A stretch of 47,425 bases of DNA from a virus (lineage: Duplodnaviria > Heunggongvirae > Uroviricota > Caudoviricetes): the IMG/VR virus record IMGVR_UViG_2778261162_000007, one strand, 5' to 3'. The stretch's first letter is position 1, and each line of letters opens with the position of its first letter. Of the stretch, positions 7,331-10,437 are shown piece by piece. Both the position numbers and the translations under genes were made by a program. Below the pieces are notes generated by a model that was given only the letters and a program-made list of their open reading frames with translations, was not told the DNA's origin and ran no database searches.

Positions 7331-7807
7331 TTAAGTTCCAGTTTTTGTGATGTTCTGGCTTTTCCGTTCAGATTCTAGAGCTTTCAGATACTTACCCACT
7401 TTCATTTCCATCGCTGCTATGTAGGCGCGAACATCGTGGTCAACCCAATCTGGTTCTGTAGCATTTCCAGATAACAGGAAAGCTACAATCGCTCTTATTT
7501 CATCAGAGGCTGCTTGATAAAGGTTGTTTATATCTAAAAGTTCACTTTTTGTATCTGAATTGGTGGGGGTTGGTATGGGGTATTCGTTAAGCCCCCAATG
7601 CTCTGGACCAACAACATCAGAAAAGAAACGCCATAATTCTGGAAGTTTATCTTTACTTATGGAGCCTTTCTTAATCCAGTCATAAATTGATGGTGGTTGG
7701 ATTTTGAAGTGGCGTGCGACCTCCGCCTTTGATTTGACGGATCCCGATGCGATTTTTTTGTTAATGGCCTGCTCTATCGCTCGGCCTAAGTCTTTACCAC
7801 TAAGCAT
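7331..7807 (-). CDS. racR: Prophage repressor RacR (HTH)
   Basis: 158-aa ORF MLSGKDLGRAIEQAINKKIASGSVKSKAEVARHFKIQPPSIYDWIKKG... with HTH; divergent from a cro-like gene. Confidence 0.85.
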   Translation of the reverse strand: MLSGKDLGRAIEQAINKKIASGSVKSKAEVARHFKIQPPSIYDWIKKGSISKDKLPELWRFFSDVVGPEHWGLNEYPIPTPTNSDTKSELLDINNLYQAASDEIRAIVAFLLSGNATEPDWVDHDVRAYIAAMEMKVGKYLKALESERKSQNITKTGT

Positions 7808-7930: not shown

Positions 7931-8227
7931 ATGAAAAAAGAGAACTATTCATTCAAGCAAGCTTGTGCTGTTGTCGGTGGGCAATCAGCAATGGCTAGGC
8001 TTTTAGGTGTATCACCTCCAAGCGTAAATCAATGGATCAAAGGGGTACGTCAATTGCCTGCCGAGAGATGTCCAGCAATTGAACGAGCAACAAGAGGTGA
8101 GGTTCTGTGCGAAGAGCTTCGTCCTGATATTGACTGGTCATATTTACGACGTTCGGCATGTTGTTCGCAGAATATGTCAGTGAAGCAACTAAATGACAGT
8201 AACAAATCCTCATTTGATCATACCTGA
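7931..8227 (+). CDS. ydaS: Cro-like HTH regulator YdaS
   Basis: MKKENYSFKQACAVVGGQSAMARLLGVSPPSVNQWIKG... HTH; divergent from the repressor. Confidence 0.85.
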   Translation: MKKENYSFKQACAVVGGQSAMARLLGVSPPSVNQWIKGVRQLPAERCPAIERATRGEVLCEELRPDIDWSYLRRSACCSQNMSVKQLNDSNKSSFDHT

Positions 8228-8249
8228 AACATCAAGAGGCAAATGATTC

Positions 8250-8672
8250 ATGAAAATCAAGCATGAGCACATCGAATCAGTGTTGTTTGCCCTGGCAGCC
8301 GAAAAAGGGCAGGCATGGGTAGCCAATGCAATTACTGAAGAATATCTGCGCCAGGGGGGCGGCGAATTGCCCCTGGTTCCAGGCAAGGACTGGAACAATC
8401 AGCAGAATATCTATCACCGTTGGTTGAAAGGTGAAACGAAAACGCAAAGAGAAAAAATTCAGAAGCTGATCCCAGCAATTCTGGCAATCCTTCCGCGCGA
8501 GTTGCGTCACCGACTCTGCATCTTCGATACCCTGGAACGCCGTGCATTACTGGCGGCGCAGGAAGCGTTAAGTACGGCAATTGATGCGCATGATGATGCA
8601 GTCCAGGCCGTTTACCGGAAAGCGCATTTCAGCGGCGGTGGTTCGTCCGGCGATTCTGTTGTTGTTCATTAA
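8250..8672 (+). CDS. ydaT: YdaT-like protein (putative toxin/CII-like partner of YdaS)
   Basis: 140-aa ORF MKIKHEHIESVLFALAAEKGQAWVANAITEEY... immediately downstream of ydaS. Confidence 0.8.
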   Translation: MKIKHEHIESVLFALAAEKGQAWVANAITEEYLRQGGGELPLVPGKDWNNQQNIYHRWLKGETKTQREKIQKLIPAILAILPRELRHRLCIFDTLERRALLAAQEALSTAIDAHDDAVQAVYRKAHFSGGGSSGDSVVVH

Positions 8673-8684
8673 GGTGATGTGGTG

Positions 8685-8981
8685 ATGGAAAAATATGAAC
8701 TGAAAAAATACCGACTTAAAACACTGGAAGGCGAAACATTGCTTCAGCGTATAGCCCGAAATGTTGCCTGGTATGCCATACGACTCTCTCTGCATCGCCA
8801 TCTTGTTAACGGGTATCCCTCGTCAACGCTGTTGTTCATCAATATCAAAGATAAAGAAAAAGCCGCAGAACACATTCGGTGGATGGAACTGGCGCAGGGA
8901 CAAGCTCTTGATATTGAGTATGGCGATGAGATCGACTACAGCAAAGCTCAACCGCTGCGCCACGTAATTTTTAGGGGGTGA
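8685..8981 (+). CDS. Hypothetical protein
   Basis: ORF downstream of ydaT; the ATG at 8685 follows GTG codons the ORF finder used as start. Confidence 0.4.
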   Translation: MEKYELKKYRLKTLEGETLLQRIARNVAWYAIRLSLHRHLVNGYPSSTLLFINIKDKEKAAEHIRWMELAQGQALDIEYGDEIDYSKAQPLRHVIFRG

Positions 8982-9233
8982 TTATGACATCTTTTCTTTT
9001 AGCTTTTGTAGGGCAACGATCAGTTCATCAATTTGGGTTGCATCCATTATCAACTCTAGTTTGTGATAAGCCCCGTAATTTAGCTCCTGTGTGTGGAATT
9101 CCTGGGCAAGTATTTTTACTCCTCCGCGATTGAGCATTCCTGAGGTGCTAAAAATTTTTGACTCGGTTCCAGTAATACTGTCCACCCAAAATTTTTGGGG
9201 GAATGGAGCAGACTTATCAAATGTAAAAGACAT
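8982..9233 (-). CDS. Hypothetical 83-aa protein, convergent AT-rich insert
   Basis: Minus-strand ORF with strong AGGAGG RBS; stop codon abuts the stop of the plus-strand 8685..8981 gene with zero spacing; visibly AT-rich. Confidence 0.5.
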   Translation of the reverse strand: MSFTFDKSAPFPQKFWVDSITGTESKIFSTSGMLNRGGVKILAQEFHTQELNYGAYHKLELIMDATQIDELIVALQKLKEKMS

Positions 9234-9312
9234 GTCGAACCTCCTTTGGTTCTGTTGATTGGGGAATCACAGATTATATCCGGAGGAAGGTTCGACACCA
9301 GATGAGGCAATT

Positions 9313-10437
9313 ATGGTTAAGGCTAAAAATATGCCAAATCCCATGCCAAAAACTAAGGCAAACAATGAGCCTTATCGCAAGGTAAAAATAACGATATGGG
9401 ATGATCCCAAATTTAGGGCGTTATCTCCTCTGCCTCCAAGTGGACAGAGTTTGTTTATTTATCTGCTGACCAGTCCATTTACCGGGATTATTCCTGGGTT
9501 GTTTAAAGCCGGGCGGGCAGCAATGGCTGAAGAGTTGGGGTGGGATATCGAAGCCTTTGACTTAGCCTTAGGCGAAGCCATGAATCTTGGCATGGTGAAA
9601 GCAGATATCAAAGCCAGAGTTTTTTGGCTCCCGAATGCTGCGAAACACAATCCGCCAAACTCGATAAATGTCATTAAATCCTGGGCAAAGGCATTCGCTT
9701 TAATTCCTGATTGTCCTCTCAAATGGGAGGCCAGGGAATCGCTGAGAGCCGCGTCCTATGGGGTTTCTGAGGCTTTGGGGATGGCATTCGATAAGGCAAT
9801 CCCTTTGCCTGAGGATAAGCCTAAGGATAAGGCTAACGCTTTGTCATGCGGTATCCAGATAACAGATAACAGATATATAAACCCCACACATAACGCGCGC
9901 GTGCGCGAGAGTGCTCCGGCCAGTGAGGCAAATGGCGTGCCGTTGCAGACAGCGGAACCTGATTACCTGGAAGGCCTGAACGAACCCATCGGGAAATTTC
10001 CGATGACTGATGGCTGGCATCCGTCGCTGGATTTTCGACGGCGGGCAGCTCTGTGGGGAGTGGCTCTGCCGGAGCCGGAATTTACACCAGCTGAACTTGC
10101 CGCCTTCCGGGACTACTGGGCAGCGGAGGGGAAAGTTTTCACGCAGGTTCAGTGGGAGCAGAAATTCGCCCGTCACGTAAATCACGTCAGGGCGCAGGTT
10201 AAACCAGTCAGCAAGGGGGTGAACCATGCAGCAGCACCAGGTGGCACCGCATCACGGGCAGTTCAGGAAATTCGGGCAGCACGTGAGCAGTGGGAACGTG
10301 AAAACGGATTTATCAGCGACGGAAACGGCCTGGAAGTTGTGGGAACTCATGGGGGAGGTTTATTCGAACCGCTGGACCCAGAAGAACGGGGCCGCACCTT
10401 CGAAGCTCTGGATTGCACAGATTGGTGCGATGACTGA
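9313..10437 (+). CDS. Putative replication-module protein (possibly YdaU-like)
   Basis: Start [34 protein letters not shown] chosen inside the longer ORF-track form; no Walker motif seen. Confidence 0.4.

Follow-up and report, generated by a model that had tools for sequence, protein, structure and literature searches.

A shared 73-bp element at the head of diverse reverse-oriented genes in the early region of Rac-type and related prophages

Introduction

Why would a small gene stand backwards in the rightward early operon of a prophage, its last nucleotide touching the end of a forward gene? The question is raised by orf98 (plus strand) and orf83 (minus strand), which meet tail to tail between ydaT and the replication genes in a 47,425-nt stretch of viral DNA (IMG/VR record IMGVR_UViG_2778261162_000007), called the window below. 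The window is an Escherichia coli Rac-type lambdoid prophage, and an 801-bp core around the two genes (8600–9400) has full-identity (100%) matches in strains such as C7 and C3. An initial annotation had found the arrangement of orf83 typical of independently transcribed accessory genes, such as those for exclusion, anti-defence or toxin-antitoxin function. Here, we report that orf83 begins at a conserved 73-bp element, the "socket", at which reverse-oriented genes of other families ("cargos") begin in other prophages. We consider it somewhat better than an even bet that the two genes form a moron-type cassette, in which orf83 is one allele of a hypervariable slot and orf98 its cognate early partner. 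Coordinates are collected in Table 1.

Results

One element heads many reverse-oriented genes

On the plus strand, the element reads CATGTCGAACCTCCTTNGGTTC, some 30–40 variable nt, then GGAAGGTTCGRCACCA, and its first block is formed by the ribosome-binding site and ATG of orf83. An exact-pattern scan with a 21-nt block recovered it from 91 IMG/VR contigs. By BLAST, 635 of 5426 complete E. coli genomes (~12%) carry it, with up to 4 copies per genome. Only 2 of 50,697 phage records carry it, and a scan of species-representative contigs returned three, from Xenorhabdus, Izhakiella and one metagenome-assembled genome. A covariance model (R1) scores 86.1 bits in the window and, of 108 loci, shows 107 to have a single copy. 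The retrieval of these loci was biased towards an exact first block; in the copies reached by other routes (L009b, EKP1, L106 and L114) the element has diverged and the architecture is kept.

The 21-nt block is preceded by a C, which gives the minus-strand ATG, in 102 of 104 copies. The open reading frames (ORFs) that start at the element fall into eight blastp families (threshold 1e-3), so that, judged by this clustering, the element heads at least eight unrelated families of reverse-oriented genes. The most frequent cargos are a 97–99-aa protein of phrog_4753, of unknown function (28 loci), a 151–155-aa protein (MSLMAVCQ...) which is gp13 of phage pPE4 (27 loci), and the orf83 family (26 loci). 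A family of 78–156 aa (8 loci) includes the "ECs1072 family" of O157:H7, a PGAP name that covers its 152–156-aa members and is distinct from the 151-aa MSLMAVCQ family. The BssS family (PF13991, E 1e-15) occupies 3 loci, and cargos of 75, 72 and 88 aa occupy 2, 1 and 1 loci, respectively. In the 99-aa family, the ratio of nonsynonymous to synonymous polymorphism (pN/pS) is 0.28 at 81% identity, which indicates purifying selection. None of the cargos or their partners matches PADLOC. The idea that the small cargos (83, 75, 72 and 88 aa, and BssS) share a superfamily finds no support: their best cross-match has an E value of 0.2 in a 41-sequence database and hhalign was negative.

Some copies are of interest in themselves. 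Locus L009 is the only one with two tandem copies (1254–1322 and 1626–1698); the first, right after ydaT, is cargo-less and has TAT for CAT, while the second is diverged and heads an 86-aa homologue of orf83. The two phage records are "Actinobacillus phage vB_Apl-pPE4" (L104, PP818812.1; 100% identity) and "Elizabethkingia phage EKP1" (L105, OM284015.1; 77%), both with ydaT-type early regions. The element is enterobacterial, and their stated hosts look doubtful. EKP1 also has a reverse ORF of the 97–99-aa family, left unannotated, that begins at the element.

The cassette is a mobile insert

In the K-12 Rac prophage, ydaT is followed after ~60 nt by the ydaU start, without cassette or element, and just the last ~20 nt before the ATG are kept (GGGGCAATTATGG, ahead of a ydaU-type start). 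Of 5426 E. coli genomes, 19 contain the full 801-bp query and 836 match its flanks; elsewhere, the same flanks enclose a different insert or none. The position 9312, where the initial annotation had ended the region, is the last base before the ATG of the replication gene at 9313, so that 8685–9312 is the entire insert relative to K-12 Rac. The cassette adjoins two kinds of replication module, DnaT-type and ydaU-type, and homology with a ydaU-type prophage breaks at ~9316, at the start codon of the replication gene. On this genome comparison, 8685–9312 is a mobile accessory cassette between ydaT and the replication gene, of which orf98 is a part.

These observations bear out the position between ydaT and the replication genes that had been given for the pair, and show that its presence varies among prophages that are otherwise nearly identical. 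They modify the view of orf83 as an interrupter: it does face against the early operon in every relative, but it is not a lone intruder, orf98 being part of the same mobile unit. Similarly, presence/absence, translation signals of its own and a promoter candidate fit an accessory gene, which would be transcribed independently if that promoter is active.

The start of orf98 is also the position at which the K-12 annotation begins ydaU. This annotated start (ATG 12 nt past ydaT) lies ~57 nt upstream of the one used in 14EC029.

Both genes of the pair are under purifying selection

PGAP labels both orf98 and orf83 as hypothetical proteins. For orf98 it picks the ATG at 8685, and an alternative GTG start at 8679 would give 100 aa. 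The orf83 protein has 11 clusters among 5.8 billion proteins. Among 1.84 billion representatives it has 8 matches: five are full-length (P0018–P0022, 36–57% identity), one is near-identical and truncated (P0010) and two are chance matches to repeat proteins. The family keeps a length of 77–86 aa, and its motifs persist down to 35% identity. These homologues answer the concern that the ORF might not be conserved in any relative. The orf98 family has ~20 clusters, all in Enterobacterales, with an invariant core, ETLIQRIARNVAWYALR, and the C-terminus VIFRG.

Codon-aligned with the Citrobacter pair (L004), the ratio of nonsynonymous to synonymous substitution rates (dN/dS) is 0.25 for orf83 and 0.13 for orf98. 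Elsewhere it ranges from 0.10 to 0.43 in 15 pairwise comparisons, synonymous sites being saturated in the remainder. By this substitution pattern, orf98 and orf83 are both real genes under purifying selection. A competing plus-strand ORF (8978–9133, 51 aa), whose GTG overlaps the orf98 stop, is not conserved and is down to 13 codons in L011.

The function of neither protein can be assigned by homology or fold. Neither matches Pfam, PHROGs or NCBIfam (for orf83, none in Pfam at E≤0.1), profile and sequence searches of the PDB were negative, and a BFVD fold search gave nothing at E≤0.001. In PADLOC 2.0, orf83 has no match and orf98 only a 14.6-bit partial match to HEC-05 (45 of 583 positions). 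No match was found by tblastn of either protein against 50,697 phage genomes. The orf98 model is helical (predicted local distance difference test score 69.6) and its fold search returned no match; the orf83 model consists of a beta-meander and an amphipathic helix, and no hydrophobic stretch was seen by eye. The remote homology that might have pointed to an exclusion, anti-defence or toxin-antitoxin role was thus not found for either protein in the family, defence-system or structure databases.

The two genes are inherited together, stop against stop

The stop codons adjoin: TGA of orf98 at 8979–8981 and TTA (the TAA stop of orf83 on the minus strand) at 8982–8984. Sequence and ORF list agree here with the zero spacing first described. 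This junction recurs in the diverged homologous pairs of L004 (Citrobacter freundii), L008, L011, L114 (C. braakii) and L116 (Enterobacter bugandensis), with an offset of 3 nt in L024. Its sequence is TGA-TTA, or TAA-TCA in L011. Among the scored pairs, 21 of 23 have a spacing of 0 and 2 of 23 a 3-nt gap. Abutting stops persist across lineages down to 36–57% protein identity, and from this recurrence the arrangement is more than chance.

The association extends to the cargo type. All 31 of 31 orf98-family matches (1–2 per locus) lie in loci with an 83-, 75- or 72-aa cargo, while none of ~66 loci with other cargos has an orf98 relative. Searching with the orf98 family gave three further pairs, of which two abut orf83 homologues and one adjoins a 75-aa cargo. 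In L008, the pair sits between cro and cII, not after the cII analogue, with a partner 36% identical (E 1e-14).

Several points weigh against the cognate pairing that we favour. The association of orf98 with orf83 is phylogenetically non-independent. L009 has an orf83 homologue without the partner, and in L115 the orf98-family gene adjoins a 75-aa cargo and lies on the downstream side of the element. Moreover, truncated orf83 copies occur in several lineages (L012, L073 and L090), which argues that orf83 is dispensable. A link to defence was also sought for either protein, and neither PADLOC nor the fold searches provided one.

Decayed cargos form a class of their own. Truncated or frameshifted orf83 homologues and one BssS-family gene stand beside an intact element and partner in L012 (4351–4527), L073 (600–849), L090 (1522–1771) and L107 (2253–2570), which marks the cargo as dispensable there. 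Cassettes that hold other cargos show tail-to-tail overlaps of 167–392 nt between the reverse gene and a plus-strand ORF, just left of the element (L002, L104, L082, L018, L083, L036, L022, L050, L081 and L010). For example, a 137-aa ORF overlaps the 151-aa cargo by 236 nt (25 loci), and a 110–117-aa ORF overlaps the 97-aa cargo by 273 nt (26 loci). Every cargo family has its own plus-strand partner family, and annotators call either strand. Such overlaps may be genuine antiparallel dual coding.

The element carries apparent signals on both strands

Read on the minus strand, the element runs from (T)TGGTG through a 15–19-nt spacer, TAnnnT, a leader of ~30 nt with a small hairpin, and AAGGAGG to an ATG 6 nt further on. 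The Shine-Dalgarno sequence of orf83, which had been called near-perfect, is in fact perfect. In a minus-strand alignment read by eye, most variants have TAnnnT at the corresponding position. With this arrangement, the element probably carries its own sigma-70 promoter for orf83, and such a promoter, if active, would express orf83 in the lysogen. The one hint of expression comes from a different cargo family: transcripts of ECs1072 were seen in an uninduced O157 (Sakai) lysogen, with a 2.13-fold change as the culture entered stationary phase (PMC2241611). The alternative candidate promoter (Table 1) would place the whole element in a 70-nt leader; its -35 lies in a gene that varies between relatives. 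The promoter scan gave 4 sites against 4.6 expected in shuffled sequence.

On the plus strand, the same bases form a hairpin with helix P1 of 9 bp (GUCGAACCU with AGGUUCGRC), P2 of 7–8 bp, a variable P3 and a 3' N-CCA tail. The fold energy of the window element is -34.5 kcal/mol (z -4.4). The minus-strand AGGAGG is here the CCUCCU portion of helices P1 and P2, and the candidate -35 CTGGTG is the C-ACCA tail after P1. Among 25 distinct sequences, 97.2% of the alignment cells assigned to helices are paired, a value reached by 0 of 500 shuffles, and slid controls gave 33–57%. Changes on both sides of a pair were found in 20 cells, mainly in P3. G.U wobbles occupy 77 of 424 cells and are A.C mismatches on the other strand, so the minus strand pairs at most ~82%. 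The minimum free energy is lower on the plus strand in 35 of 35 variants, by 3–17 kcal/mol. Positions facing U alternate between A and G, and positions facing C remain G. As read from the alignment, this pattern of variation is the mark of a structure that pairs in the rightward RNA.

Two of these results weigh against a socket that serves the reverse gene first: the structure signal favours the strand opposite orf83, and the candidate -35 matches TTGACA at 2–3 of 6 positions, a weakness for which the consensus scan did not call the promoter. The element may instead be primarily for the rightward transcript, as a structured RNA (an RNase III or RNase P site, or a 5' or 3' stabiliser) that uncouples ydaT from the replication gene, the backward genes being opportunists that exploit the complement of the CCUCC arm as a ribosome-binding site. 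The changes in the outer helices, which are all U-A to U.G or G-C to G.U exchanges in either direction on the plus strand, argue for this explanation, as do the covariation of the inner helix (13 and 5 double changes) and the fixed place of the hairpin, whose end is always 10–25 nt ahead of the next gene's ribosome-binding site. So does the 9-bp stem followed by an N-CCA tail (N = A, U or G), a form that resembles a tRNA acceptor end or the minihelix substrates of RNase P.

We nevertheless find this explanation, the strongest of the alternatives, rather unlikely. Where the cargo is absent, the arms go: in the cargo-less prophage (L108), both outer arms are degenerate and the score falls to 39.9 versus 86 bits, and in K-12 Rac the arms are missing (regions compared: L108 2485–2557 and L110 1608–1680). 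Conservation of the hairpin is thus tied to the presence of a reverse gene, and the operon itself does not need it. The minus-strand ATG is kept almost throughout, with ORFs beginning exactly there, and TAnnnT lies in an unpaired internal loop, where it is best explained as a -10 of the other strand. The element matches no Rfam family (only chance-level matches, elsewhere in 8900–9450) and ARAGORN makes no tRNA call in the window.

Other identities were considered for the element and rejected. An antitermination site of the nut or put type is contradicted by the single copy per locus in the covariance model, with no leftward twin. A YdaT operator (TTGATT/ATGATT-N6-AATCAA) at 9257–9269 fails because the P3 half-sites (TTGATT-GGGG-AATCA) are spaced by 4, not 6, nt; the true box is at 8243–8260. 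In other variants of the element, P3 sequences are unrelated. The element is not a pRE analogue, as the establishment promoter and YdaT-box of such phages are at the ydaS/ydaT junction (PMC9986795, PMC8630535, PMC11879457). The element is also unrelated to the small RNA svsR (PMC12803456), which maps to the 3' end of cI. The idea of an RNase P substrate like the M3 RNA of phi80 is unsupported with the element in only two phage records. A model of cassettes with flanking, attC-like repeats fits L009 alone, with its two copies.

Surroundings of the cassette

The switch to the left of the cassette is of the Rac type and probably functional, since ATGATTCATGAAAATCAA, at the ydaT start codon, is an exact copy of the footprinted YdaT-box of K-12 Rac (PMC11879457). 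It differs from TTGATTN6AATCAA at one position. Ahead of the cassette, ydaT is the last of the conserved early genes, and on the right a lambda-P-like gene comes next after the DnaT-domain replication gene. For the latter, PGAP chooses a start that corresponds to 9523 (305 aa), the alternative being the ATG at 9313 (374 aa). We favour the ATG at 9313 because of the ORF, a match to PHROG 1408 (E 1e-90) from residue 20 onwards, and the point at which homology with ydaU-type prophages breaks off.

At 39.7%, orf83 has the lowest GC content of seven measured features (window 47.4%). The AT-richness first described is true but modest, as the repressor and ydaS genes are also low. No terminator-like site was found between orf98 and orf83 or downstream; the minus strand shows none below 8982, and the junction forms no hairpin. 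Early rightward transcripts must therefore continue across orf83 in antisense, just as any leftward transcript must run on into orf98 and ydaT, antisense to both. The overlapping convergent transcripts that had been predicted are unavoidable if both promoters fire.

In related prophages, type II toxin-antitoxin modules lie just past the repressor gene: RelE/ParE-RelB (paaR2-paaA2-parE2) and HigB with a helix-turn-helix partner (L106 145–623; L108 556–1220). The immunity region thus gathers several kinds of accessory module.

Table 1. Features of the cassette and its surroundings (positions in the window)
Feature	Position	Strand	Remarks
73-bp element ("socket")	9231–9303	.	conserved; minus strand: orf83 expression signals; plus strand: three-helix hairpin then ACCA
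orf83	8982–9233	-	reverse-oriented cargo gene; GC 39.7%, GC at third codon positions 39.3%
orf98	8685–8981	+	PGAP WP_000417086.1; GC 45.5%; starts 12 nt past the ydaT stop
orf83 Shine-Dalgarno AGGAGG	9240–9245	-	perfect; 6 nt ahead of ATG 9233–9231; read from sequence
Candidate -10 TATAAT	9273–9278	-	perfect hexamer; read from sequence
Candidate -35-like CTGGTG	9296–9301	-	17 nt upstream of the -10; TTGGTG in most relatives; weak
Alternative candidate promoter TTGGCA-16-CATAAT	9310–9337	-	consensus scan, 10/12 matches; overlaps start of replication gene
racR-like repressor gene	7331–7807	-	GC 42.1%
ydaS/cro	7931–8227		GC 43.8%
YdaT-box	8243–8260	.	ATGATTCATGAAAATCAA; overlaps ydaT start; context only, marks the Rac-type immunity region
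ydaT, cII analogue	8250–8672	+	Pfam YdaT_toxin E 3.9e-11; PHROG 163 CII-like activator E 2.4e-37; GC 51.3%
Replication initiation gene, DnaT domain	9313–10437	+	Pfam DnaT E 1.8e-17; GC 52.0%; right cassette border

Discussion

How the cassette might work

The moron-type cassette that we favour suggests the following course. The gene orf98 would be read with the early rightward (pR-type) operon, and orf83 backwards, the element supplying it with AAGGAGG-N6-ATG, a short hairpin leader and probably a sigma-70 promoter. In the lysogen, with the early promoter under repression, orf83 would be the sole product of the pair, expressed from a promoter of its own. Upon induction or infection, early transcription would make orf98 and run antisense over orf83, which would be shut down by collision and by formation of an RNA duplex. 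The orf98 protein would act as the cognate partner of orf83, most plausibly as a neutraliser or self-immunity factor. On the rightward transcript, the hairpin of the element would stand just 5' of the ribosome-binding site of the replication gene.

A bolder version is, in our view, less likely than not. The element would be a dual-strand module, with promoter, leader, ribosome-binding site and ATG on one strand and a selected hairpin of the early transcript on the other. The backward gene would be active during lysogeny, as a defence or host-modulating function for instance, and the forward gene together with antisense transcription would be the induced antidote. The locus would then be an arms-race slot equivalent in place to oop, and represent an undescribed class of interchangeable, convergent cassettes of two genes in lambdoid prophages of enterobacteria.

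Other explanations of the pair

The leftward RNA could itself be the product that matters, starting beside the replication gene and lowering expression of the cII analogue as oop does, with the protein secondary. Position and orientation are indeed those of lambda pO/oop, the missing terminator after orf83 would carry the transcript antisense into orf98 and ydaT, and the tail-to-tail overlaps of 167–392 nt in other cassettes would suit antisense control. Against this, purifying selection clearly acts on the protein sequence in orf83 and its relatives, a perfect ribosome-binding site is present, and K-12 Rac works without the cassette (PMC11879457). Furthermore, the cargo is wholly different among phages with the same ydaT, so that any antisense target recognised by its sequence would have to be the partner gene in the cassette and not ydaT. 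On balance, we judge oop-like control improbable.

An addiction pair of the toxin-antitoxin type, stabilising the prophage and coupled by the convergent transcripts, would account for small genes tightly co-inherited across 36–57% protein identity, for their fast evolution and narrow families, and for the many toxin-antitoxin modules (RelE/ParE and HigB) near this locus in the related prophages L106 and L108. Yet Pfam, NCBIfam and PADLOC give no toxin-antitoxin match, and the genes are convergent and not co-transcribed as in type II, while orf83 shows none of the hydrophobic stretch, by eye, that marks type I toxins. A repressed lysogen making only orf83 also fits poorly: as a toxin it would kill the host, as an antitoxin it would have no target. 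With a truncated orf83 persisting beside an intact orf98 in L012, we consider such a pair very improbable.

Finally, that orf83 is a chance ORF or an annotation artefact antisense to a non-coding spacer, as its lack of a family and of matches in the 50,697 phage genomes might suggest, is hardly credible, being already refuted by dN/dS and contradicted by its constant length, kept motifs, perfect ribosome-binding site and unconserved plus-strand competitor.

Significance

The element occurs in about one E. coli genome in eight, including the CP-933P-type prophages of O157:H7, whose immunity switch is under experimental dissection with the gene next to ydaT skipped. A short sequence identifies a hypervariable slot that is filled by at least eight protein families without known mechanism (one BssS-like), and with it prophage accessory genes with probable expression in the lysogen can be mined cheaply. 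It also defines a set of candidate gene pairs in which defence with self-immunity can be tested. The same bases are apparently constrained on both strands, by expression signals on one and by RNA pairing on the other, which is an unusual case. For annotation, the reverse ORFs are real, and current pipelines call either strand inconsistently.

Comparison with known systems

Several likenesses do not hold at the level of the proteins. A type II toxin-antitoxin system was rejected, as said above, on convergence and on the Pfam, NCBIfam and PADLOC searches, and a type I system with a 3'-overlapping antisense RNA on the missing hydrophobic stretch in orf83. BssS (PF13991) is closer, since a BssS-family gene sits in the same socket elsewhere, with 83–84 aa and a secondary-structure pattern that looks similar by eye; orf83 is nonetheless not a BssS, as it has no PF13991 match and hhalign gives a profile-profile probability of 0.2%.

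The element recalls an integron attC site: both are imperfect inverted repeats of ~70 bp with ends like RYYYAAC...GTTRRRY (here GTCGAAC...GTTCGRC), the cassettes are interchangeable and in one orientation, and in L009 two copies flank a cargo. Unlike attC, the element is at the 5' end of the cargo, where it holds the ribosome-binding site and ATG, and is single in 107 of 108 loci. Its core agrees at 6 of 7 positions, and the gene tables of the loci examined list no integron integrase.

The likeness to BstA/aba prophage defence is conceptual only: a lysogen-active gene by the immunity region, with a linked determinant that spares the phage's own lytic growth. The aba determinant is reportedly a DNA element inside bstA, whereas the candidate antidote here would be a separate early protein plus antisense transcription; there is no homology, and a defence role of the cassette is hypothetical.

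In lambda, oop is a fixed 77-nt non-coding RNA with an intrinsic terminator. The cassette shares with pO/oop a leftward unit that starts just upstream of the replication gene, converges with a cII-type gene and overlaps or abuts a rightward gene at its 3' end. In contrast to oop, it encodes conserved proteins of 72–156 aa, has no terminator and occupies a hypervariable slot, and the element is not known to resemble oop in sequence. A short non-coding RNA of the oop type was rejected for orf83 on its coding sequence under purifying selection and the absence of a terminator in our searches.

The closest relatives are the morons of lambdoid phages, extra transcription units between conserved genes in the concept of Hendrix and Juhala. 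As in a moron, the cassette is present or absent between homologous neighbours, with K-12 Rac lacking it and with alternative cargos and a cargo-less version. The GC content of orf83, 39.7% versus 51–52% for ydaT and the replication gene, differs in the expected direction, if modestly. Its orientation is independent of the operon, with its own translation signals, a candidate promoter and presumed expression in the prophage; for that promoter there are two candidates, the internal CTGGTG-17-TATAAT and TTGGCA-16-CATAAT (9337–9310). Unlike a classical moron, the cassette has no terminator that we could find, and it unites two genes in convergent orientation, one of them part of the host operon. 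The sharing of one conserved 73-bp head and one slot by many unrelated morons also falls outside the classical description. The element is absent from Rfam and from the literature that was searched. Morons and hotspots of prophage accessory genes are already known; what is new here is a single 73-bp head for many unrelated backward genes, together with the apparent two-strand constraint of this element and the convergent, often overlapping, partner genes.

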